Below are positions 2,861 to 60,427 of a stretch of 64,000 nt of DNA, piece by piece. Below the pieces are notes generated by a model, which searched no databases, was not told the DNA's origin, and worked only from the letters and a program-made list of their open reading frames with translations. Positions within the stretch are counted from its first letter, which is position 1. Every line of letters starts with the position of its first letter. Origin of the DNA: an uncultured Alphaproteobacteria bacterium (lineage in GTDB: Bacteria; Pseudomonadota; Alphaproteobacteria; Rhizobiales; Beijerinckiaceae); NCBI GenBank assembly GCA_963841875.1, contig CAWJEI010000002.1:91838-155837 (forward strand), read 5' to 3'. The position numbers were made by a program, and so were the translations under genes.

Positions 2861-2921
2861 CGGTGCCGTCCGTTTCGGTCGTTGCTACGTCGCGGAAGCT
2901 CAATCCGGCCCCAATCCCCAC

Positions 2922-3779
2922 TCACCCCACCACCACATCCAACCCCAAATCCATCACCCGCGCCGAATGGGTGAGCGCCCCGACTGAAATCAAATCGACG
3001 CCGGTTTCGGCGATCGCCGCGATGCTCTCCAGCGTCACGCCGCCGGAGGCTTCGGCGATCATGCGGCCGCCGATCATCGCCACCGCCTCGCGCAAATCCT
3101 CAAGCGACATATTGTCGAGCAGCACGACATCCGCGCCCTCCGCCAGAACCTCGCGCAATTGCGCGAGCGTATCGACCTCTATCTCGATCTTCACCAGATG
3201 GCCCTTGAAAGCCTTTGCGGCGCGTAGCGCGTTGGCGACGCCGCCCGCGACGGCGATGTGGTTGTCCTTGATGAGGATCGCGTCGTCGAGGCCGAAGCGG
3301 TGATTGGAGCCGCCGCCGCAGCGCACGGCGTATTTCTCGAAGGCGCGCAGCAGCGGCGTGGTCTTGCGCGTGTCGCAGACCTTGGCTTTCGTGTGCGCGA
3401 TCCTCGCCGCGAAACGCTCCGTTAGCGAGGCGATCCCCGAAAGCCGTCCGAGATAGTTCAGCGCCACGCGCTCGGCGCCGAGCACGCCGCGCGCCGAGCC
3501 TTTTATGCGCGCGACGACGGCGCCCGGCGCCACATGCGCGCCATCTTCGACGCAAGGCTCGAAGGCGATCGCGGCGTCGATCTGCGCGAAGGCTTCGCGC
3601 GCCAGCGGTAGGCCGGCGATCACGCCTTCCTCGCGCGCCGCGATGACGGCCTTTGCCTGCGCGGAGGTGGGAATGGTCGCCTGCGTGGTGATGTCGCCAG
3701 CGCGGCCGAGGTCTTCTTGAAGCGCGGCGCGCACGGCGTCGGCTATCAGCAGCGGCGAAAGGGCGGGAAGGTTGTTCAT
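2922..3779 (-). CDS. nadC: Nicotinate-nucleotide pyrophosphorylase (quinolinate phosphoribosyltransferase)
   Basis: 285 aa; the full-length NadC/QPRTase pattern runs from ...[12 protein letters not shown]... to ...VMDLGLDVV.... Confidence 0.9.
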
Positions 3780-5305
3780 TGCGTCGCCTCGAGCGCGATG
3801 GCCTGCGCCTGCTCCAGCGTCATGCGCGAGCGATGCGCCAACTCAGCTTCGGCCTTTGGAAAATCCGAGCGAAAATGCGCGCCCCGGCTTTCGCGCCGGG
3901 CGTAAGCCGCGCTGGCGATCAGCAGCGCCGTCGTCAGCATGTTCTGCGTTTGCGGGTCTTTGCCTTGAGTTCGTAGCCGCGAGATTGCGCCGAGCGCGCG
4001 AGCAAGGCCTGTCTTGTCGCGGATGACGCCCACATTCATCGCCATCACGTCGCGCAACTCCTCAATGAGGGCGCCTTCGTCATTGTGCTGGAGTTGCTCG
4101 GAGGCGCTTTCGGGCGCCGCGCCGCCCTGCGGGCTCGCAGCGATATCCGCCGCCACGCGCGCGCCAAAGACGATGGCCTCCAGCAGCGAATTTGAGGCGA
4201 GGCGATTGGCGCCGTGCAGGCCGGTGCAGGCGACTTCTCCCGCCGCCCAGAGGCCGGGCAGGGTGGTTCGGCCCCGCGCGTCCGTGGCGACGCCGCCCAT
4301 ATGGTAATGCGCGGCGGGCGCGATGGGGATCACGGCGGTCACGGGATCTATCCCCGCCGCCATGCAGCTTGCGTAGACGGTCGGGAACCGGGACGCGAAG
4401 GCGGCGCCGACGGCGGCGCGCGCGTCGAGAAAGGCGCCCTTGCCCGCTTTGATGCTGCCAAACACCCCGCGCGCGACAATATCGCGGGGCGCGAGTTCGG
4501 CGGCGGGGTTTATGTCGGCGAGAAAGCGATGTCCGTCCCTGTCGACGATCAGCGCGCCTTCGCCGCGCAGCGATTCGGTGGCGAGCGGGGCGGGGTCGGC
4601 GCCGATGTCCATCGCCGTGGGGTGAAATTGCACGAATTCCGCGTCGGAGATCAGCGCGCCCGCCTGCGCCGCCATGGCGACGCCGGCGCCGCAGGCGTCG
4701 ACCGGATTGGTGGTGACGCGGTAGAGATGGCCGACGCCGCCTGTCGCCAGCACCAACGCCTTGCAGGGCAGGAAGCGCGTGCCGCCTTGGGCGTCGACGC
4801 CCAGGACTCCGACCGCGCGGCCTTCATGCGTGACAATGCGAAAAGCCGAAATTCCCTCGATGATCTCGATCGAGGGCGTGCGCAGAACCTCGCGAGTCAG
4901 CGCGTCCATGATCGCGCGGCCCGCCGCGTCGCCTTTCACCCGAACGATGCGACGATGCGAATGCGCCGCCTCGCGCGAGGGCTGCAACACGCCTTGCGCG
5001 TCTCGGTCGAAGGGCGCGCCGAAGGCGGCCAGATCGTCGATCCGCGCGCGCGCCTCCAGCGCCACGCCGAGGGCTACGTCGGCGTCGACGAGGCCGGCGC
5101 CCGCCGCGACGGTATCGGCGGCGTGAACCTCCGGCGTGTCCTCCTCGGTGACGGCCGCCGCGACGCCGCCCTGCGCCCAGGACGAGGCGCCGCCGATGCC
5201 TGCCGGCGCCAGTATCGCCACCGGCAGCGGCGCGAGTTTGAGCGCGCAGAAGACTCCGGCGAGCCCGCCGCCGATGATGAGAATGGGAGCTGTTGTTTCG
5301 CTCAT
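3776..5305 (-). CDS. nadB: L-aspartate oxidase
   Basis: 509 aa; N-terminal FAD-binding GGGLAG motif ([15 protein letters not shown]) and the fumarate reductase/succinate dehydrogenase flavoprotein fold signature. Overlaps nadC by 4 nt, indicating an operon. Confidence 0.9.
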
Positions 5306-5309
5306 GCGC

Positions 5310-5951
5310 TCAGTCGACCGCGACGGCGGCGAGACGCGACAGCGCGGCGGATTCCTTTTCGATCGCGGCTGTCACGAGCGCGCGGGTGCGCGGGGGCAGG
5401 GGCAGTTCGAGCGCGGCGGCATGTCCGCGCGGCGACATCTTGCACAGGGTTTTTCCCAGAATGTCGACGATCTTGTCGTCGTCATAGCCTTCGTATTTGG
5501 CGAGGAACTCGTCGAAATAATGCTCAAGGAAGACAATCGCCGCGATGTTCTCCAGCGCTTGCGATTCTCGGTCTTTCTTGAGCTGCTCCTTGCGGATCAG
5601 GGCGCCGACATGGTTCGCTTCATCGTCGGAATAGCCTTGGGCGCGCATGATGTCGCCGACCAGCTTCGCGTGATGAATGCGGCATTGCTTGCGCCAGTCG
5701 TTATAACCGTGGCGCCCTTGTGGATAGTCGGCGCGATGAATTTCCCAGCGCCGCAAATGCTGCGCGCGCGCAGCGATTTGGAGGAGTTCCGAAGCCCCCG
5801 GATAGACCGCCGCGAGACGCGCGCTCATGCGCCGGGAATAAAGCTGTTCGAAAGCGATTTCTTCGCCGTCGACAACCAGCTTGCGGGGATCGTCCGCGTT
5901 GGCGGCGTCGATCGCCGCCAGAACTGCGCTGAGCCTCGTCGTCGCGGCCAT
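5310..5951 (-). CDS. DUF4202-family protein embedded in the nad operon
   Basis: Real start is the internal Met at 5949-5951 (MAATTRLSAVLAAIDAANADD...). The longer ORF upstream overlaps the nadA 3' end in another frame. ~213 aa; content such as ...HRADYPQGRHGYNDWRKQCRIHHAKL... and ...EHYFDEFLAKYEGYDDDKIVDIL... matches DUF4202. Confidence 0.6.
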   Translation of the reverse strand: MAATTRLSAVLAAIDAANADDPRKLVVDGEEIAFEQLYSRRMSARLAAVYPGASELLQIAARAQHLRRWEIHRADYPQGRHGYNDWRKQCRIHHAKLVGDIMRAQGYSDDEANHVGALIRKEQLKKDRESQALENIAAIVFLEHYFDEFLAKYEGYDDDKIVDILGKTLCKMSPRGHAAALELPLPPRTRALVTAAIEKESAALSRLAAVAVD

Positions 5952-7517: not shown

Positions 7518-9557
7518 ATGTCTGTTTTTTACAACAGCGCACATCGCTCTACTTCGACAAAACTTTCCTCGCTTCGCTCCTTTTTCATGTGGCAGGCGAG
7601 CAAATGCCTGCAGCTGTTGGACGGCGATTTGCTCGCGTTTGAGGAGAGAACGCCCTCAAGCGTGGTTGTCGGGCGAATCCGGACGGAACAGCTCACGTCA
7701 GTGGCGAGCAACACCATCCTCATGATGCTGGCGTCGGCGTTGAACGCTCTTGTCTGGATGAGCGTCACCTTCCCCACGCCGAAGGCGGGGCTCGGCCTGG
7801 CCTGGGGCGCCATCGTCCTTTGTCTTTGTGGGTTTGTCGCCTTCAAGCGCCTAAATGACGACCGAAGCAATTTCTCGGCGCCTTCAAAGCGCGGACTTCA
7901 TTTGGCGACGTGCTACGCTTTCGCTTTCGGCGTGATTTGGGGCTTGCTCCCGATAATGTTTTTCGGGGATGCGGCGCCGGGGGAACGACTCATCATCGTC
8001 TGCCTCTCCAGCGGGATGATGTTTGGCGGGGCCACGGCGCTCTGGACCATTCCCACCGCGCTGCTGGCTTTCTTGGCGCCGATCTTCTGCGGATCGCTTT
8101 ACACGATCGACGCGACGGAAGGTCCGGCCTTTGGCGCTCTGGCCGCGCTGCTGGTCGTTTATACGCTCTTCCTGTTTGGGGCGAGCCTCGTCCGTTCCGT
8201 CGCCATGGCGCGCCGCTGCGTGGCCATGGTCGACGCGGAAAACAGCGTATTGAAGGATGAACTCACCAAGCTGCCCAACCGCGCGATATTCCGTAACGAG
8301 CTGACCAGAGCCCTGGCGCGTCAGGATCGCAACGGCGGCGGCTTTGCGGTGATGTGCTTCGATCTGGACGGGTTCAAGAAGGTCAATGACACGATGGGCC
8401 ACGCCGCCGGCGACCAGGTTCTTATCGAAGCGGCGCGCCGCTTGAGCCAATCGACCCGCAGCGTCGACACGTTGGCGCGTTTCGGCGGAGACGAATTCGC
8501 GTTGATCGCCACGGATATCTTTTCGCCTTCTCAGGCGAAGGTCGTCGCGGACAGGATCGTGCGCGCGTTCAAGGAACCTTTCGTCGTCGACGGCGCCGCG
8601 CATAAGGTCACGATCAGCGTCGGCGTCGCACTGGCGCCCACCGACGGCGTTGACGGCTCCGCGCTGTTGCGCAACGCCGACAGCGCGCTGTATGCGACCA
8701 AGAACTCAGGTCGCAGCGGCTTTACCCTTTTTCGAGAGCAGTTCAGGTTCGTCGCCGAACGGACGACGCTGGAAGCCGAATTGGACCGCGCGTTGGCGCA
8801 GCGCGAACTCGATATTGTTTACCAGCCGTTCGTTCATGTGGAGAGCCTGCGCACAACCGGCTTCGAGGCCCTGGTGCGGTGGCGGCATCCCTCGCGCGGC
8901 GTTCTTGAAGCCTCAGACATTATTCCTCTGCTTGAACGCGCCGGACTCATCGACGCCGTTGGCGCTCACATATTGAAAGAGGCTGTCGCCGCAGCGGCAA
9001 GCTGGCCCGAGCGCCTCCGGCTGGCGGTTCCGGTTTCACATCTACAGCTTCTCAAGCCCGGATTTGCGCAAACCGTGAAAGCGATTTTGGAGGATGCGGA
9101 CTTCAATCCCCGCCGGCTGGAGCTTGAGTTAAGCCAAAGCGCCTTGATTGTTGAATTGCCCGAGGCGATCGAGCAATTGCGCATGTTGCGGGACATGGGG
9201 GTGAAGACGGCGTTGAAGGATCTTGACGCAGGCTACGGCTCGCTGGTCGGTCTCGTGGAACTGCCGCTCAATCGCCTCAAGATCGACAAGCGCTTTGTCC
9301 GCGATCTCGTCAACAAGTCGATGTGCGCGTCTATTGTGAGGATTTCCTCCGAGCTTGCGCGCGCCTTGAACCTGGAAGTCACCGCGGAAGGCGTCGAGAA
9401 CAGCGCGCAGCTCGCGGCGATCCGGGGGCTCGGTTGCATGGAAGCGCAAGGGCCGGCCTTTGGCGCGCCGCGAGGATCGGCGGACCTCGAAGCGTTGTAT
9501 GAGTTCTCGCGCCTTGCCACGAAGTCGCGCAGGCGCCGACTGGAACGGGTCGCCTGA
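7518..9557 (+). CDS. Membrane-anchored GGDEF-EAL protein (diguanylate cyclase/phosphodiesterase)
   Basis: 679 aa with multiple N-terminal TM helices, a GGDEF motif (RFGGDEF) and an EAL domain (EALVRWRHP..., ...DLDAGYGSL...). The start codon is uncertain; several in-frame Met lie downstream. Confidence 0.85.
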   Translation: MSVFYNSAHRSTSTKLSSLRSFFMWQASKCLQLLDGDLLAFEERTPSSVVVGRIRTEQLTSVASNTILMMLASALNALVWMSVTFPTPKAGLGLAWGAIVLCLCGFVAFKRLNDDRSNFSAPSKRGLHLATCYAFAFGVIWGLLPIMFFGDAAPGERLIIVCLSSGMMFGGATALWTIPTALLAFLAPIFCGSLYTIDATEGPAFGALAALLVVYTLFLFGASLVRSVAMARRCVAMVDAENSVLKDELTKLPNRAIFRNELTRALARQDRNGGGFAVMCFDLDGFKKVNDTMGHAAGDQVLIEAARRLSQSTRSVDTLARFGGDEFALIATDIFSPSQAKVVADRIVRAFKEPFVVDGAAHKVTISVGVALAPTDGVDGSALLRNADSALYATKNSGRSGFTLFREQFRFVAERTTLEAELDRALAQRELDIVYQPFVHVESLRTTGFEALVRWRHPSRGVLEASDIIPLLERAGLIDAVGAHILKEAVAAAASWPERLRLAVPVSHLQLLKPGFAQTVKAILEDADFNPRRLELELSQSALIVELPEAIEQLRMLRDMGVKTALKDLDAGYGSLVGLVELPLNRLKIDKRFVRDLVNKSMCASIVRISSELARALNLEVTAEGVENSAQLAAIRGLGCMEAQGPAFGAPRGSADLEALYEFSRLATKSRRRRLERVA

Positions 9558-9629
9558 GCGGCGATCCAGCTCCGGCGGACTTTCAAATCGGCGATTTTGT
9601 CCCCGCGTTGAAAGTGCTATCAACGCGGC

Positions 9630-16013: not shown

Positions 16014-16179
16014 CGGCCCCGGAACAGCGCCGAATATGCGCACGCGACGTGACATGTCCGCGTGAAAGGTGTGGAATTCGAAATACGGCGGTTGATTCGC
16101 GCCGCCAGCAAGGCCACACCGTAACTATGCGAGATTTTGTCCGGGCCTCGCCGGATGGTCGAACCTGAAAAGAACCCCC

Positions 16180-22261: not shown

Positions 22262-22276
22262 GTTCATGTATTGTTC
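22262..22276. promoter_or_regulatory. Alphaproteobacterial LexA (SOS) box GTTC-N7-GTTC upstream of dnaE2
   Basis: Sequence gttcATGTATTgttc lies 26 bp upstream of the dnaE2 start codon and matches the alphaproteobacterial LexA direct-repeat operator. Confidence 0.5.
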
Positions 22277-39133: not shown

Positions 39134-39844
39134 TCAATACTTCCGCAGCAGGCTCACCAGTCTGCCCTGAATCCGCACGCGGTCGGGGCCGAAGATGCGG
39201 GTTTCATAGGCGGGATTCGCCGCCTCCAGCGCGATCGACGCGCCGCGCTTGCGCAGGCGCTTCAGCGTCGCTTCCTCGTCGTCGATCAGCGCGACGACGA
39301 TATCGCCGCTGTCGGCCTGTTCCTGTTTCTTGATCACGACCGTGTCGCCGTCGAGAATGCCGGCCTCGATCATCGAATCGCCGCGCACTTCCAGCGCGAA
39401 ATGCTCGCCATTGGAGAGCATGTCCGGCGGCAGGCTGATGGTGTGGCTGCGCGACTGGATCGCGGAGATCGGCGTGCCGGCGGCGATGCGGCCCATGACC
39501 GGAATGGCGACCTGCTGGCCTTCCATTTCCTCCTCGCGCTCATGCAGCGGGCGCACGCGGCCGAGCGTGCCCTCGATGACGGAGGGCGAGAATTTGCGGG
39601 AGCGGTTGGGGGCGCCCGAGGGCGTCGAGGATTCGGGCAGGCGCAGCACTTCCAGCGCGCGGGCGCGATTTGGAAGGCGGCGGATGAAGCCGCGCTCCTC
39701 CAGCGCGAGGATGAGCCGGTGGATGCCGGACTTGGAGCGCAGGTCCAGCGCGTCCTTCATCTCGTCGAAGGAGGGCGGAACGCCGGTCTCCTTGAGGCGC
39801 TCATTGATGAAACGCAGGAGATCGCTCTGTTTTCTCGTCAACAT
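39134..39844 (-). CDS. lexA: LexA repressor
   Basis: 236 aa with an N-terminal wHTH ([29 protein letters not shown]) and a C-terminal S24 peptidase domain with Ser/Lys dyad motifs (GDSM, ...KRLRK...). Confidence 0.9.
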
Positions 39845-39943
39845 TCCAAAAGCCCCCGGAGAGCGACGGGCGGTTTTTCCGCCAAATCATGTGGCCGAAC
39901 TATGGCCGCCGCTCATAAACAAATCATGAACGTCAGCATAGAC

Positions 39944-39958
39944 GTTCTTGCTGCGTTC
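39944..39958. promoter_or_regulatory. LexA box GTTC-N7-GTTC upstream of lexA (autoregulation)
   Basis: Sequence gttcTTGCTGCgttc lies in the lexA 5' region and exactly matches the alphaproteobacterial SOS operator direct repeat. Confidence 0.6.
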
Positions 39959-40032
39959 CGTCAACGGGGGCGATATTATACTTGACATACCCAACCCCAA
40001 GATATAGGATTTGAGCCATAGGAGATTTTGCT

Positions 40033-40993
40033 ATGGCTGCCCCAATTCTCACCGCCAAACACCTGCAAAACGAAGAGGCCGCTTTCGCCTTCGTTGAAGC
40101 CGCTCTTTGGCCACATGGGCCGGTTTGCCCGCATTGCGGCGGTCTCAAGCGCATTTCCAAAATGCAGGGTAAAAGCACTCGCGTTGGCCTCTACAAGTGC
40201 TACGCCTGCCGCAAACCCTTCACCGTTCGCATGGGGACCATCTTCGAGTCCTCGCATATCCAGCTGCATCTTTGGTTGCAGGCGATCCATCTGCTTTGCT
40301 CTTCCAAGAAGGGCATTTCGAGCAATCAGCTTCACCGCACTCTCGGAATCACTCTCAAGAGCGCGTGGTTTTTATCTCACCGCATTCGCGAAGCGATGCG
40401 TGATGGTTCCCTTGCGCCTATGGGCGGAAATGGCGGGGTCGTGGAAGTTGACGAAACCTATATCGGCAAGGCGAGCTTTGCAGAAGGCAAGGAGCCAGTT
40501 AGCGGCCCATACCACAAGCGCACCATTCTCGGGCTGGTTGAACGCGGCGGACGGGTTCGCACCTTCCACGCCGAAGGCGCTCGCGCTCAGGAAATCGCGC
40601 CTATCGTCCGCGAGAACCTCGCGCGCGAAGCCAAGATAATGACCGATGAGTTCGAAGATTTACACCAAGCTTGGCGCCGAGTTCTCCGCGCACTTCACCG
40701 TCAACCACAGCGCCGAGGAATGGGCTCGATACACTAACGTCCGCATGTTCCCCAAGGGCGAGGAATTTGTCATTCACACCAACACCATTGAAGGTTATTT
40801 CAGCATTTTCAAGCGCGGCATGAAGGGTATCTATCAGCATTGCTCAGAGAAGCATTTGCACAGGTATTTGGCGGAATTTGATTTCCGCTACAGCAACCGC
40901 ATTAAACTCGGCTGTGATGACAGCGATCGCGCTCACCGCGCACTTCTAGGCGTCAAAGGCAAGAGGCTTACTTATCAAACGACTCGTCACTAA
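40033..40993 (+). mobile_element. IS1595-family (ISXO2-like) transposase gene, interrupted by an apparent +1 frameshift near 40645-40660
   Basis: ORF 40033-40737 holds the N-terminal zinc-ribbon (CPHCGG…CYACRKPF) and the first half of the DDE domain. ORF 40646-40993 holds the C-terminal part (...HTNTIEGYFSIFKRGMKGIYQHCSEKHLHRYLAEFDFRYSNR...). The two frames overlap by 92 nt, and removing one T near gagTtcg would restore ...IMTDESKIYTKLG.... Terminal inverted repeats were not confidently delimited. Confidence 0.75.
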
Positions 40994-41435
40994 GAAGTGC
41001 ATTAATCACAAAAAGAAGGATTGAATATAATGACCGATTTAGTCCTTAAAGGGCCGCAGCCATTCGATTTAATGCCCCAGCGAGACGCAACAGCAGTTGC
41101 CGAAGGTGAAAACGTAAGCATGACTCTGCCTGTATTCGCTTTCGGCTTTCCTGAGAACGCCGCGCAAATTCGGCTCTTACTAACGCCGGATCAAGCACTA
41201 CAAATTGTGGATCAACTTCATGGCGCTTTGGCAATAGCGCGTGCGCATGGGCGCCGCCCGTCTTAGCTTCAACCATAAAACCCCCGAGATAGCTTCATGC
41301 CCCGCAAATCACCGCCTAAACGCAACGAAAAGCCTCAGTTTGAACGCTTCATTGAGGCGGTAAAGCAAATTGGCGCGAACAACACAGACGACGGGCTATT
41401 AGAAACAATCCGTAAAATCGCCGGATCAAAGGCGG

Positions 41436-42266
41436 CTACCAAACCCCTCCACGACAGTGATGAGCCTGCCAAAGATTCTCATAAGTCCAAATAATTACAG
41501 AAGGTGGCGCGCCATTATCGACTAGGCAATCCAGCGTTTTCCTGGCTGGCGGCCTTATCGACCCATATTTTGACAACGCCCAATTATCCATGTGAGCGCT
41601 ACGCTCTATTTGGCCAATTGGCTTATCAGGGATCGCAAACCAGTCATCCAGCCGGAGATGCTGTTTCTGCATCTCATGCGCCAAAAAATCAGCGGCCTGT
41701 AGAGGTTTGACCTCGCGCCAAGTAATTGATTCCGGCAGGGGGATTGGAATTATTCTCTTGGCAATATGTGGGTAATAAGCGTCATTCTTAGCGTAGTCGA
41801 ATGCTTTATCTAGCTTTGAGTAAACACGGTCTAAGTGGTCAAACACGATTTCAACGGGTATATCCTCAAATTCTTTTGCCAACACAGCCATGCAGCCATA
41901 CGCGGCCAGAGGATAGGGCTCTAATTTTGTTCCTGCCTCTGAATTGAAGCGCTCCAGATCATCCATTCTGACAATTGAGCAAAACGGCCTTAAATAACAA
42001 TCATTAATCACGGAGGTTAGGTCTTTAAAAAAAGCTCGGCGCTCGCCTTCGTGCTCCTGAGGAGGATACCATTTTGCATAAACGCCCTTGGGCTTTGCCA
42101 TTTCTTTCATATGGAAATATGGCACATCGTGCCGGTCAAGCATCTCCTGCCAAGCCCTCTCAAAATCCTCCCATTGGTAATCGTGGCCCATATACCCAGC
42201 AAGCACCCAAACCCGATCGTTTGGTTTGCTGTCGTCAGCGTATGCCTTGTTTATTGCAACAGCCAT
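41436..42266 (-). CDS. DUF3800-like protein (low-GC cargo next to IS1595)
   Basis: Start chosen at the internal Met MAVAINKAYADDSKPNDRVWVLAGYM (cf. the DUF3800 N-terminal h-h-Y-h-D-E-S-G motif). A C-terminal ...PLQAADFLAHEM... resembles the DUF3800 Q-AD motif. Low GC; family call from memory, tentative. Confidence 0.4.
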   Translation of the reverse strand: MAVAINKAYADDSKPNDRVWVLAGYMGHDYQWEDFERAWQEMLDRHDVPYFHMKEMAKPKGVYAKWYPPQEHEGERRAFFKDLTSVINDCYLRPFCSIVRMDDLERFNSEAGTKLEPYPLAAYGCMAVLAKEFEDIPVEIVFDHLDRVYSKLDKAFDYAKNDAYYPHIAKRIIPIPLPESITWREVKPLQAADFLAHEMQKQHLRLDDWFAIPDKPIGQIERSAHMDNWALSKYGSIRPPARKTLDCLVDNGAPPSVIIWTYENLWQAHHCRGGVW

Positions 42267-42466
42267 GACACTCGGTCTCGGCGGCGCGTTGAAGATAGAA
42301 AATTGAACAAGTCGGATATTTATTGGAGCGCCGATTCGCTCTTTGCCGCTCATTGCTCATACCATATGCTGAGGTGGGTATGCAAAGTATAATATCACCT
42401 CAACGGGGTGATTATGATCGCCGAAGTAGGGCCGGATAATTGCGGTAGTACCACGGGGCTGATACC

Positions 42467-43114
42467 GTGAATATGGAAAACGATTTAATCTTCCAAAACC
42501 TTTCCCCCCAAAGGCCGCTGATGCGTTTTCGACTTATTTATCAAGGACCTCTCTCTGGTTCCGGGAACAGCTCCAAAAAGGCTGACGAGGTGAGGGATAT
42601 TCGAGATCAGCTTCACTCTCAGCTCGAATATTTATGGCAGTCACATAACTCTCTGAAAAAAGTGCGTAAAACGGCAATCGTCAGAAAAGATGGACAAGGC
42701 TTTTATGCAATAAAAGATAGCCCCTTTTCTGTAGAAAGGGACATAGAAAAATATCCTGCCAGGGAAGACGAAATAGATTTGTCAGGGTGTATTTACGAGA
42801 ACGGACACTGTTATATTCCGTTGGTCCGGGAATCACTCAGCCTGAATTGTCATTTGGATATACTTTTCTTGCGGCACGAAGACCCGGGTTCGCTTGTTCT
42901 CCAAGGCGGAGACTTGGATAATCGAATTAAAACCTTGTTCGATGCGTTGAGAAAACCAGATAACGATATAGCGCTAAAATACCCGCAAAAATATAACCCT
43001 CTATATTGTTTGCTTGAGAGCGATACTCTTATTTCCGGCTTCCAAGTTGATACTGATCGGCTATTGACTCCGCCTACTAACGGTCGGAAAAATGAAGTGA
43101 CATCTTGTAATTGA
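42467..43114 (+). CDS. Hypothetical 215-aa protein, divergent partner of the DUF3800-like gene (low-GC)
   Basis: Clean 215-aa ORF (MNMENDLIFQNLSPQRPLMRFRLIYQGPLSGSGNSSKKADEVRDIRDQLHSQLEYLWQSH...) with low GC and AT-rich codons. No family recognised. Confidence 0.5.
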   Translation: MNMENDLIFQNLSPQRPLMRFRLIYQGPLSGSGNSSKKADEVRDIRDQLHSQLEYLWQSHNSLKKVRKTAIVRKDGQGFYAIKDSPFSVERDIEKYPAREDEIDLSGCIYENGHCYIPLVRESLSLNCHLDILFLRHEDPGSLVLQGGDLDNRIKTLFDALRKPDNDIALKYPQKYNPLYCLLESDTLISGFQVDTDRLLTPPTNGRKNEVTSCN

Positions 43115-43384
43115 AGTATCCGTAAGAGTCCTCAGGCTTGGTTCATGGAACATGAGCCTTATTGGGATGTAACGTGTCTTTCCGGCTATTGTCCTAAGTG
43201 GGTTGTCAAGGTCGCTTGTGTTTTCCACGCCGAGCTCACTAGCGATTTCATCGAACGGTTCAGATTGGCGTTTATCAGTGAATTTAGACTTCGGCTTAGG
43301 TTTGGCCTTCGCTTTTGGCTTGCAGGGGTCGGTTTTTGCGATAGAGCCTCACCATCGCTTGCTTCGAGCAATTACCTTCCGCCC

Positions 43385-44449
43385 TCAATTATTCGAATAA
43401 GCGAAATTGATCGAATAGGTCAGCCCCCTTGGCGGCGGGGGGAAGGGGGCGGCCTTGCGCAGGCCGTCCATCGCCGCCGCGTCCAGCTCCGGCAGGCCGG
43501 AGGGCTGGCGCACCGCGACGCGGGTCAGATTGCCCTTCAGATCGACGTTGAAGACGAGAACACCCTCGCGGTGGACATGATCGCGCGACGCGCTCTCGGG
43601 CATCTTGATCCCCGGAATGATCAGGCCCCAGAGAATCGAGAGATAGGTCGTGTTCGCCGTTCCGCCCGTGACCGGCGCCGCCTTGGCCGCGCCGCTGAAG
43701 AGATAGGCCGGCGCGGGGTCGGGATCGGTCAGTTCATCGGCGACGGATTTCGCGCCCTGCCGAACCTCGCCCTTTGTGTCCGAGCGCGTCTCCTTCTCCT
43801 CCGGCCTGTCGCGCTTGATCTCGGCGCGCTCAAGCACCTCGGCGTCGGGCTTGTCCTCGACCTGCTTGAGCGCGGGCGGCTCCTTTGAAACGTCGGGCGC
43901 GGCCTGTTGCGCGGGGCTGGGCTGTTTCTCGGGCGAGGGCTTTTGCGCGGTCTGCTTCGTCGCCGGCCCCTTGCGCGCGGCCTTGGTCTCCTTGTCCGGC
44001 GCCGTGCGCTCGACCTTTTCCTTGTTCTGCGCGCGCGGCGCGTCGGTGGCCGGCTCCTCGTAGGGCTGCTGCTGTTGCTGCTGGGGCTCCGGCTTTTTCG
44101 GCTCGGGCGGCTTTTCCTGGGGCTTTTGCTCTTCCGGCTTCTTTTCTTCGGGCTTCTTTTCCTCGGGTTTCTTCTGCTCGGGCGGCGGCTCCTGCTTTTG
44201 CTGCTCCTCGGGCTTGGGCTGGGGCGGCGGCGGAGGGGGCTGCTGCGGCTGTTCGGTGATGACCTCGACCGGCGTTTCCTGAAGCTGATTGTCGTGGGGC
44301 ACGAAAATGGCGTCGAGGATGATGAGGAGCGTGAAAATCCCCACATGCAGCGCAAGGCAGATGCCGAGAATCGCGAGAAAACGGCTGCGCTGGGGCGGCG
44401 GCGGTTCGCGCTTTTCGATGCGCTCTATGGTCTGGGCTTCGAGGCTCAA
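43385..44449 (-). CDS. tonB: Energy transducer TonB
   Basis: N-terminal TM anchor, a long Pro/Glu/Lys-rich spacer (KKPEEKKPEEKKPEEQKP repeats) and a C-terminal TonB domain (...YLSILWGLIIPGIKMP…VLVFNVDLKGNLTRVAVRQPSGLPELDAAAMDGLRKAAPFPPPP). Confidence 0.75.
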   Translation of the reverse strand: MSLEAQTIERIEKREPPPPQRSRFLAILGICLALHVGIFTLLIILDAIFVPHDNQLQETPVEVITEQPQQPPPPPPQPKPEEQQKQEPPPEQKKPEEKKPEEKKPEEQKPQEKPPEPKKPEPQQQQQQPYEEPATDAPRAQNKEKVERTAPDKETKAARKGPATKQTAQKPSPEKQPSPAQQAAPDVSKEPPALKQVEDKPDAEVLERAEIKRDRPEEKETRSDTKGEVRQGAKSVADELTDPDPAPAYLFSGAAKAAPVTGGTANTTYLSILWGLIIPGIKMPESASRDHVHREGVLVFNVDLKGNLTRVAVRQPSGLPELDAAAMDGLRKAAPFPPPPRGLTYSINFAYSNN

Positions 44450-59869: not shown

Positions 59870-60427
59870 GTGGTGGGGACTGTCGTTGACAATCTATATG
59901 CGGATTTTAGCGCGATTGTTCAGATACTCGACGCAAGCTCCGAGGTTTCATTAAGAAGTTCTGTTGAAGCTAATTTTCGCAAAGCTCTATTATTGTGTGC
60001 GGCAAGCTTCTTCGAGCACAAACTCTCAACAAGTATTTTAGATTTTTGTCACGAATCCTCAAAAGGTAATACATTAATTCCTTCGCTTATTCGCATCAAG
60101 GCTGTTAATAGGCAATATCATACCTGGTTTAGCTGGGAGTCTAGTAATGTTAACCAATTCATTGGCTTGTTTGGAGATGACTTTAAGAAATTCATGAGTG
60201 GATACATCAAGGACAACAATCTTGAAGTCCCAATTAAGGATTTTATGGAGATTGGCAGTAGCAGAAATCGCTTGGTTCATCAAGATTTTGGAAGTTTTAC
60301 ACTCGAAAAAACGTCATCTGAAATATATAACACATATGAATCTGCTCTATTATTTGTTGATAGTGTTCCTGTAGCTCTCAGAGCATGCTCTGCGCAGTGT
60401 TTGCAATACGAAGATTTACCTAATTGA
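59870..60427 (+). CDS. HEPN-like protein (R-x4-H motif), partner of the DUF262 gene; low-GC
   Basis: 185-aa mostly helical protein with ...GSSRNRLVHQDFG... (Rx4H, HEPN-type RNase motif). Own GTG start at 59870 preceded by a strong SD (gtAGGAGAagtcgcGTG). In-frame stops upstream prove it is a separate gene. HEPN assignment is by motif only. Confidence 0.45.
   Translation: MVGTVVDNLYADFSAIVQILDASSEVSLRSSVEANFRKALLLCAASFFEHKLSTSILDFCHESSKGNTLIPSLIRIKAVNRQYHTWFSWESSNVNQFIGLFGDDFKKFMSGYIKDNNLEVPIKDFMEIGSSRNRLVHQDFGSFTLEKTSSEIYNTYESALLFVDSVPVALRACSAQCLQYEDLPN

Follow-up and report, generated by a model that had tools for sequence, protein, structure and literature searches.

Between lexA and a tonB-like gene of an uncultured alphaproteobacterium of the Beijerinckiaceae lies a 3.4-kb stretch of low-GC DNA, and the question it raises is whether its genes came as one mobile cassette or arrived separately. 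The stretch belongs to a 64,000-nucleotide piece of contig CAWJEI010000002.1, hereafter the window, whose numbering is used for all positions given without a locus name. A first-pass annotation of this DNA had proposed that a single insertion sequence (IS) of the IS1595 family carried a DUF3800-like gene together with a divergently transcribed open reading frame (ORF) of 215 amino acids (aa), as a mobile accessory or defence cassette. Our analysis points elsewhere. The low-GC stretch very probably represents two successive insertions of cargo-carrying IS1595-family elements with ISNwi1-like ends, both at one place a few bases away from the operator of lexA: an older one, element B, and a younger one, IS A. 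In itself, the object in the window is ordinary, a pair of decayed insertion sequences from a family in which passenger genes are nothing new.

IS A, a complete and recent insertion beside lexA

The features to the left of element B are the following.

39134–39844, minus strand: lexA, the left flank of the low-GC stretch
39964–39935, minus strand: lexA promoter-like site TTGACG-18-TATGCT, spanning the LexA operator
39944–39958, no strand: LexA operator of lexA, GTTCTTGCTGCGTTC, a perfect GTTC-N7-GTTC match and the landing site
39961–39968, no strand: left target site duplication TCAACGGG, 8 bp, identical to the 8-mer at 42400–42407
39969–42399, plus strand: IS A, a complete IS1595-family (ISNwi1-like) element with cargo, 2431 bp, with inverted repeats and an 8-bp duplication
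40033–40993, plus strand: IS1595 transposase gene, inactivated by a +1 frameshift, its Pfam domains spread over two frames
41021–41266, plus strand: orf81, a conserved IS gene of no assigned family, probable start ATG 41030
41297–41494, plus strand: orf65, encoding a small Lys-rich protein, a standard component of the IS group
41436–42263, minus strand: DUF3800-like gene, 276 aa, cargo of IS A, RNase H-like fold
42400–42407, no strand: right target site duplication TCAACGGG, 8 bp, abutting the right tip of IS A

The limits of IS A are given by its terminal inverted repeats, the longest of the region, in which 39969–39993 pairs with 42375–42399 over 25 nucleotides (88% complementary), the tips reading GGCGATATTATAC and GGTGATATTATAC. 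Directly outside stand two copies of TCAACGGG, a perfect pair, and IS A is therefore 2431 bp long. Both the repeats and the 8-bp duplication, which the first-pass annotation had proposed to look for, are thus present, as in an IS1595-family element, and duplications of 8 bp were also seen at 35 related elements. The ends of IS A (GGCGATATTAT) and its length would be compatible with the ISNwi1 subgroup, in which ends follow ggnnatTAT and the length reaches about 1750–4750 bp through passenger genes; the subgroup assignment is tentative. Between its ends, IS A holds the transposase gene, orf81, orf65 and, on the opposite strand, the DUF3800-like gene. The 215-aa ORF is outside, its start lying 68 bp past the right end.

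An exact-sequence look-up of the window LexA protein led us to L165, a 3.6-kb metagenome contig with the empty site that had also been suggested as a check. There, the LexA box is followed by CG, a single TCAACGGG and then the sequence as from window position 42408 on. On alignment with the window minus 39969–42407, only 5 of 3637 columns differed, namely three synonymous changes in lexA, one single-nucleotide polymorphism at 43130 and one extra G in the window at 43097–43099. In L165 the 215-aa gene stands directly beside lexA, without the DUF3800-like gene. The filled site was found again in L001, an independent, error-rich assembly of the same locus. The empty site and the filled site together indicated that IS A is a recent simple insertion, polymorphic in nature.

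The LexA box reported at 39944–39958 is a perfect alphaproteobacterial match, the Caulobacter-type SOS box consensus being GTTC-N7-GTTC (PMC9578287). The −35 element TTGACG of the lexA promoter-like site overlaps the duplicated 8-mer, and IS A therefore sits just upstream of an intact lexA promoter. From 0.66 in lexA and tonB, the G+C content drops to 0.55 (transposase gene), 0.48 (DUF3800-like gene) and 0.43 (215-aa ORF), in agreement with the markedly low values noticed earlier.

The gene after the box encodes, as had been called, an IS1595-type transposase, though in a frameshifted form. It matched Zn_ribbon_IS1595 (PF12760, 2.6e-14) and, in two frames, DDE_Tnp_IS1595 (PF12762, 8.6e-10 and 2.9e-16), the reading frames being 40033–40737 and 40646–40993. 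Comparison with intact relatives attributed the frameshift to one extra T near 40647–40650, where the L166 transposase predicts MTDESKIYTKLGAEF, and a tblastn search of an intact transposase against the window placed the change of frame between 40650 and 40661. The intact transposase of L002 matched NCBIfam transpos_IS1595 at 9.4e-52; IS A lacks the intact transposase gene of an autonomous element. A promoter-like TTGACA-17-TAGGAT lies at 39982–40010, inside the left repeat. We noticed that TTGACA, as the −35 element of the transposase promoter, is always in the transposase-side end, the cargo-side end being variable at these positions, and that ends of ATATTATAC type also carry a perfect, outward-facing TATAAT, 6 nucleotides from the tip.

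The two small ORFs of 81 and 65 aa listed by the first-pass annotation are conserved genes, with copies 86% and 71% identical, respectively, in L166. Copies of orf81 (86–88% identical) stand beside a related transposase throughout L166–L172; Pfam and NCBIfam gave no match for it. For orf65, 15 database relatives were found, starting MPRKSPPK.DEKPQFERFIEAA, and its position, between transposase and cargo, is the same with both types of cargo. Comparable small ORFs occupy this position in plasmid-borne elements, two of six (L178 and L180) giving weak tblastn matches (E about 1e-3) and those of L177 and L179 resembling orf65 by eye only. From its constancy, the small basic ORF perhaps serves a core IS function, such as regulation or targeting. 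Searches of NCBIfam and PHROGs returned no match for the small ORFs or for the cargo proteins. Across the window, the scan for further IS copies returned only one end-motif match with two mismatches, GGCAATATCATAC at 60111–60123, which is within chance expectation and has no transposase or cargo homologue nearby.

Element B, the putative remnant of an older insertion

The features to the right of IS A are the following.

42406–43384, plus strand: element B, read as an IS remnant of ~0.98 kb with its transposase deleted, from its layout and one degenerate end
42467–43171, plus strand: RusA-like gene (the 215-aa ORF), putative cargo of element B, frameshifted, with a premature stop at 43112–43114
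43061–43342, minus strand: decayed small Lys-rich IS ORF, its start codon decayed to ATC, homologous part 43178–43300
43349–43384, minus strand: possible last 11 transposase codons of element B, GRKVIARSKRW plus stop, a weak match made by eye, abutting the tonB stop
43385–44449, minus strand: tonB-like gene, the right flank of the low-GC stretch

We read 42406–43384 as what is left of an earlier insertion by this IS group, its transposase and far end being gone, because a degenerate end, a match to the small-ORF profile and transposase-like C-terminal codons are found there. The end, GGTGATTATGATCGCCGAAGTAGGG, is similar to the one on the cargo side in L002, GTGATATTATACTTGCCGTAGTATGG. The order (end, RusA-like gene, small ORF) is that of the intact 1.9-kb elements L002, L008, L010, L011 and L056, and the G+C content is 0.455 as against 0.66 in the flanks. 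The decayed coding fragment that had been noted at 43145–43385 is present, but it is on the minus strand and is the remnant of the small Lys-rich IS ORF: its minus-strand translation reads IAKTDPCKPKAKAKPKPKSKFTDKRQSEPFDEIASELGVENTSDLDNPLRTIAG, and in a six-frame search of the whole window the small-ORF family profile matched 43178–43300 (E 1.3e-5). The codons next to the tonB stop resemble, weakly and by eye, the transposase C-termini GKRLTYQTTRH-stop of IS A and GKRLTYQTARY-stop of L166.

Element B would thus have arrived first, with a RusA-like nuclease gene as cargo, and would later have lost its transposase and far end, its cargo becoming frameshifted in this strain. IS A came second: an ordinary DDE transposition event, which duplicated 8 bp, placed it between the operator and element B's end. 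The RusA-like gene is truncated in the window by the extra G at 43097–43099, its lost C-terminus continuing in the next frame to 43171; the gene is intact in L165. Both elements look inactive in this strain, because IS A has a one-nucleotide insertion in its transposase gene, the RusA-like gene has another, and element B has no transposase. Two points speak against this history. First, element B has neither a far end nor a target duplication, its IS status following from its layout and one degenerate end. Second, the frameshifts of the transposase and RusA-like genes could be assembly errors.

Nested or abutting elements are frequent in this IS group, with the end of the second copy ~10–20 nucleotides from the tip (L009, right flank 9550–9590; L106, 7408–8989; L020, L024 and L062). 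IS A and element B are arranged in this way too, and the elements may therefore also be targeted by being drawn to ends already in place.

Cargo genes and their exchange

The 215-aa ORF had been described as having no recognisable family. It is indeed part of a family, and a large one, but its intact frame extends to 43171 and a RusA fold can be recognised. A word-indexed search returned 1421 relatives and an exhaustive search of 1.84 billion proteins 2654 clusters at 50% identity. Members are typically 214–233 aa long, with the C-terminus ..NEVHLVIEVxVRVLxIGxWNxSLxG. Because many of them have a conserved N-terminal extension (..L.xQNLSCPR...) ahead of the usual MRFRL start (window 42467–42520; alignment columns 30–49), the true start is probably an upstream GTG or ATG, at 42467 or 42473, as had been assumed before.

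Judged from its AlphaFold model (predicted local distance difference test, pLDDT, 84.4), the protein is RusA-like by fold without being a member of Pfam RusA. Its motif GGDLDNRIKTLFDAL aligns with RRDLDNLQKAAFDAL of RusA. Among 72 divergent members, D131 and D133 are invariant and K137 and D168 at least 90% conserved, and the predicted protein combines the RusA fold with the catalytic Asp-x-Asp ... Lys ... Asp constellation. Several results weigh against the relationship. The similarity is one of fold and of a single motif; a Foldseek search of the model against the PDB returned nothing significant, and a profile search of the PDB with the family nothing meaningful. The window protein has no match to Pfam RusA (PF05866). 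This is the Pfam family most often matched by the members, yet weakly (3/35 and 4/72, E 0.03–0.075), and among the more divergent members from the 1.84-billion-protein search it was still the commonest match and still a weak one. In hhalign, the family and RusA aligned over the 18-residue motif only, with a probability of 5–10%.

This family is repeatedly linked to IS1595 elements. A convergent IS1595 transposase gene lies within 3.5 kb downstream of the RusA-like gene at 37 of the 71 genome loci that have at least 2.5 kb of downstream sequence, and at all five loci tested the RusA-like gene, the small ORF and the transposase gene are exactly enclosed by inverted repeats of the same type, giving elements of 1.92–1.96 kb. 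In L002, a RusA-like gene (75% identical) stands between lexA and an intact IS1595 transposase gene, with a small Lys-rich ORF intervening. Several other RusA-like loci keep an end-like sequence about 100 nucleotides upstream. In Acidobacteria (L039, L061, L063), the RusA-like gene is downstream of the transposase gene, on the same strand and inside the repeats. More distant relatives, 33–35% identical, occur without an IS on plasmids of Nitrosococcus halophilus (pNHAL01, L163, 5001–5573) and Nostoc sp. CENA543 (L164, 4001–4567). In the former, the neighbouring genes carry the annotations restriction endonuclease, nucleotide-binding protein and HNH endonuclease, and in the latter the neighbour is an ATP-binding protein gene; this looks like a defence-island setting.

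The assignment of the minus-strand gene of IS A to DUF3800 held in part. The protein has 102 relatives and a confidently modelled RNase H-like fold (pLDDT 93.6), but it scored 19.5–19.9 bits with Pfam DUF3800 (PF12686), below the gathering cut-off of 21 bits, and the gene most likely starts at 42263 (276 aa) rather than at 42353. The best Foldseek matches of the model were RNase HII and HIII (E 5e-5 to 4e-3), with 1eke on top (5e-5); a PDB profile search with the family gave nothing meaningful. Five of 35 family members match Pfam DUF3800 at E < 0.01, and more distant IS-borne relatives in L174 and L176 pass its cut-off (21.6 and 23.9 bits). Q190 and D193 do not vary in the family, and D11, D12 and S13 hardly do. 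The protein has the N-terminal acidic motif, the C-terminal Q-x-x-D and the RNase H-like fold of DUF3800. Relatives are inside the inverted repeats of 2.1–2.5-kb elements at five of six loci tested. Among 80 loci, for the most part short contigs, at least 27 have the gene next to an IS1595 transposase gene, often with a small ORF between.

Elements close to IS A combine the same backbone with different cargo. The cargo is positioned opposite the transposase gene and reads inward from the far end, and in close relatives it may be a RusA-like gene, a DUF3800-like gene or an unrelated gene of 306 aa. IS A and the L166 element are 81–91% identical over both ends, the flanks of the transposase gene, orf81 and the start of orf65, and ~50–60% over the cargo. 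The relatives with other cargo are the following.

L166, 2198–4640 (also L167–L172): element with the 306-aa cargo gene
L179, 693–4105: element of Methylobacterium oryzae pMOC1
L180, about 2886–5487: element of a Roseomonas marmotae plasmid
L177, 2938–4806: plasmid-borne element
L181 and L182: further plasmid-borne relatives

The plasmid-borne relatives are from cultured Alphaproteobacteria; they have the same kind of ends and measure 1.9–3.4 kb, and their cargo includes a PIN/VapC gene with a partner of 266–288 aa, or several small genes. In L179 and L180 the PIN/VapC gene and its partner are on the transposase strand, downstream of the transposase gene, and the 1.87-kb element of L177 has a transposase gene and a small ORF with no annotated cargo gene.

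The L166 locus was seen in at least 24 metagenome contigs. Its 306-aa cargo protein had no Pfam, PADLOC or PDB match and no detectable family. It contains an R-x4-H motif, which prompted the guess of a HEPN domain; no tool supported this guess, and we dropped it. The central part (window 40419–40869) of the transposase gene is 55–65% identical between IS A and L166 and both of its flanks 81–91%, which suggests a mosaic, that is, recombinant, gene.

What the cargo does for the element can be answered in two ways. We tentatively favour the possibility that each cargo gene encodes a nuclease acting alone, of a toxin or abortive-infection type, which would aid retention of the element and be dispensable for transposition. 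The other answer, unlikely in our view, is that they are transposition accessories, the RusA-like and RNase H-like (RuvC fold class) proteins processing branched DNA such as cointegrates, strand-transfer intermediates or repair intermediates and replacing one another, as non-homologous proteins, in the same position. Such a role would fit the repeated linkage of the RusA-like family to IS1595 across phyla, in two arrangements (convergent in Alphaproteobacteria, co-directional in Acidobacteria), as well as the sharing of one position by two different nuclease folds with conserved putative catalytic residues. It fits poorly with 1.9-kb members such as L177, which have a transposase gene and a small ORF and no annotated cargo gene; ISNwi1-type elements of 1.1–1.2 kb are not known to carry cargo either. 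The same position also holds genes as unrelated as that of the 306-aa protein, the plasmid relatives carry PIN/VapC with a partner, and distant RusA-like relatives occur next to restriction and HNH endonuclease genes on plasmids, with no IS. Finally, the DUF3800-like model is closest to RNase HII and HIII, not to RuvC. A retention-promoting or defence-type role has a difficulty of its own: the models of PADLOC-DB 2.0, with E up to 1, gave no match for any of the five proteins of the region, those of orf81, orf65 and the DUF3800-like and RusA-like genes included, or for three further cargo proteins.

Insertion beside LexA operators

We then considered the position of these elements. A scan covered all termini of this IS type in the DNA retrieved for comparison, 89 in 1.23 Mb, and 11 of them had a perfect GTTC-N7-GTTC box in the outside flank, 10, 12 or 15 nucleotides from the tip. 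The chance rate of a perfect box in the same range, at random positions, is 0.0002 per terminus, or 0.018 expected for 89, and boxes with one mismatch were absent from the outside flanks of the same termini. The distance follows the type of inverted repeat. The box ends 15 nucleotides from the tip in six cases, with ends of GTTACACTT type (one, L023, reading TTTATACTT), 12 nucleotides in four cases, with ends of ATTATACTT type, and 10 nucleotides in IS A. In the IS group, the spacing from tip to box corresponds to 4 or 7 nucleotides plus the 8-bp duplication. All 11 boxes are in a single orientation towards the tip, and they lie beside either end of the IS, six on the transposase side and five on the cargo side. 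The box-adjacent loci are listed below.

Window, 39944–39968: box next to IS A
L002, L010, L023, L050, L106, L145, L153, L166, L174, L176 and L178: other loci with a box-adjacent insertion

Target duplications and box spacers all differ among these cases, so the insertions are independent. A twelfth box-adjacent insertion is on the Mesorhizobium plasmid pB1-1-8, from a cultured isolate. Site targeting would leave independent insertions at a constant distance and in a constant orientation, well above chance, and this is what was found at the sequence level. At that level, then, the IS group prefers LexA operators as landing sites, with the tip 12 or 15 nucleotides (10 in the window) from a perfect box, on the same side, and in either orientation of the IS. 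This preference would explain the position of IS A beside lexA. The lexA operator of the window lineage was hit twice, and a lexA gene lies within 2 kb of a RusA-like gene in the window, L002, L040 and L062, far above chance.

Some observations stand beside these. In L051, boxes are found on both sides of the target, at atypical orientation and distances; the gene next to this insertion looks SplB-like by eye from its N-terminal sequence. Methylosinus sporium DSM 17706 (L040, 5898–6645) has a very divergent RusA-like member (36% identical) directly after the lexA operator. The gene is low in GC, has no recognisable IS end or transposase and gives way immediately to host DNA of high GC; a different lineage of the element seems to have used this landing site as well. 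The window contains two more perfect LexA-type boxes, GAACCTGAAAAGAAC and GTTCATGTATTGTTC, at 16161–16175 and 22262–22276.

The preference is not without counter-evidence. It is partial, covering ~12 of roughly 50 elements. Another palindrome adjoins five others, and no motif is obvious at the remaining ones. The orientation bias could owe something to selection against harmful insertions, and in the window IS A could just as well have been drawn to the end of element B. The palindrome, CATAAT-N4-ATTATG, is not a LexA box and stands 3 nucleotides plus the 8-bp duplication from the five elements, for example CGCATAATGTATATTATG.

L017, about 7891; L047, about 8075; L072, about 5891; L020, about 3216; L081, about 3308: elements beside CATAAT-N4-ATTATG

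Could the closeness to LexA boxes have arisen without targeting, through random insertion with survival only at harmless positions upstream of promoters, or through chance boxes? We regard this as improbable. It is true that only about a quarter of the elements are beside a box, that regions upstream of promoters are plausible safe sites and that the lexA −35 element is intact beside IS A. Yet the distances are quantised at 12 or 15 nucleotides and follow the inverted-repeat type, the box has one orientation in 11 of 11 cases and is perfect in all of them, with no one-mismatch box and 0.018 cases expected for 89 termini, and survival alone would not single out LexA operators among intergenic DNA.

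If the elements are targeted, the transposase or the small basic protein would, we think rather probably, read the operator DNA or the LexA bound to it, SOS promoters offering a harmless landing pad just upstream of the −35 element. A wider proposal, on which we are evenly divided, is that an IS1595 subgroup homes to LexA operators by recognising the box or bound LexA, places itself 4 or 7 bp plus the 8-bp duplication away on one defined side, and also shuttles exchangeable single-gene nucleases, including the large RusA-like family of >2600 clusters at 50% identity.

One element with a two-gene cassette, or none

The reading proposed first, of one IS1595 element mobilising 2.4 kb of cargo, with a two-gene defence or accessory cassette made up of the DUF3800-like gene and the 215-aa gene divergent from it, now seems very improbable. 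Its attractions are that the genes are physically divergent, 200 bp apart and both in low-GC DNA, and that DUF3800 domains occur in retron type VII and Cas12a2-linked systems. However, IS A ends at 42399, its right inverted repeat and target duplication separating the two genes, and the empty site of L165 has the 215-aa gene and not the DUF3800-like gene. Moreover, the two families did not co-occur in any of 160 other loci. Among the 80 genome loci of the RusA-like family, the only DUF3800-like match was in L001, the same locus in another assembly, and none of the 80 metagenome loci of the DUF3800-like family had a gene of the RusA-like family. Since the two cargo families are never together elsewhere, the proposed pair is an accident of two insertions at one place. 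Mobile low-GC cargo beside the lexA promoter remains a correct description as far as an IS1595 insertion carrying the DUF3800-like gene is concerned, but the 215-aa gene is best seen as the cargo of a second, older element. The defence interpretation has no direct support, no protein having a PADLOC match, though a defence role may still hold for the cargo genes taken one at a time. A false lead is thus removed, two decayed mobile elements taking the place of a two-gene cassette.

The idea that the low-GC ORFs are spurious and the region decayed foreign DNA can be set aside as having almost no likelihood: two genes are indeed frameshifted in this strain, but each ORF belongs to a conserved family with many relatives (102 for the DUF3800-like and 1421 for the RusA-like protein, where a lack of conservation elsewhere had been named as the refuting outcome), and the structure models are confident (pLDDT 93.6 and 84.4).

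Comparison with known systems

For three points we found no description: a constant IS backbone with exchanged cargo, mostly predicted nucleases; a large RusA-fold family without a Pfam model; and a fixed distance from LexA operators.

The ISNwi1 group of the IS1595 family reportedly contains longer members with passenger genes. Like that group, the present elements have a DDE transposase with the N-terminal IS1595 zinc ribbon, an 8-bp target duplication and ends starting GG..AT(A/G)TTA(T/C)AC, and they reach about 1.9–3.4 kb through extra genes downstream of the transposase. The subgroup assignment is tentative, being based on the end consensus. RusA-like or DUF3800-like cargo, cargo exchange, a standard Lys-rich ORF and the preference for LexA operators distinguish them from the described members, for none of which did we find these features mentioned; our literature search on ISNwi1, IS1595 passenger genes and RusA in insertion sequences returned nothing relevant, the 2009 IS1595 paper and a 2014 review being outside it.

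Compared with RusA, the Holliday-junction resolvase of the E. coli prophage DLP12 (PDB 1Q8R, PF05866), the RusA-like proteins are about twice as long (214–233 aa), with a ~50-residue insertion and, in many members, the N-terminal extension. The Pfam RusA model does not recognise them at significant E-values, and their genes are IS-borne rather than phage-borne (no PHROGs match).

DUF3800 proteins are known from retron type VII and Cas12a2-linked loci (Mestre et al. 2020, PMC7736814; Altae-Tran et al. 2023, PMC10910872). The family of the window shares with them the RNase H2-like fold, 1EKE being the top template both here and in Mestre et al. (PMC7736814), the N-terminal acidic motif and the C-terminal Q-x-x-D. 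In contrast to those proteins, it is a divergent subfamily, mostly below the Pfam cut-off, and its gene is IS cargo that stands alone, without a reverse transcriptase, Cas or TPR partner. An Rfam scan of 39700–43600 at a permissive E-value, aimed at the published DUF3800-associated RNA motifs, gave no match.

A link between mobile elements and the SOS repressor is known in another form, in elements that have LexA boxes in their own promoters, such as the transposase genes of ISCR (PMC13393415). In both cases a transposable element is linked to the operator of the SOS repressor. In the ISCR type, however, the box is part of the element, whereas here it is that of the host target, is kept in the empty site and lies outside the target duplication.

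We found no report of an IS targeting LexA boxes. If the targeting is true, no insertion sequence was known before to land at SOS boxes, the presence of such elements beside SOS genes would be explained, and the steering of a simple DDE transposase could be studied in a natural setting. The operator of a transcription factor would then join the protein-marked landing sites, namely attTn7, dif and res sites. The closest parallel is offered by the IS1202 family, whose members insert 5 bp from the XerC site of dif. There too, a short and constant spacing separates the IS from a site bound by a host protein, and the IS1202 authors propose that the transposase contacts the bound protein. The IS1202 transposase is TnsB-like and unrelated, makes duplications of 3–5 bp and inserts in one orientation only, whereas the elements described here would use an SOS operator, in either orientation of the IS, at 4 or 7 nucleotides plus the 8-bp duplication.

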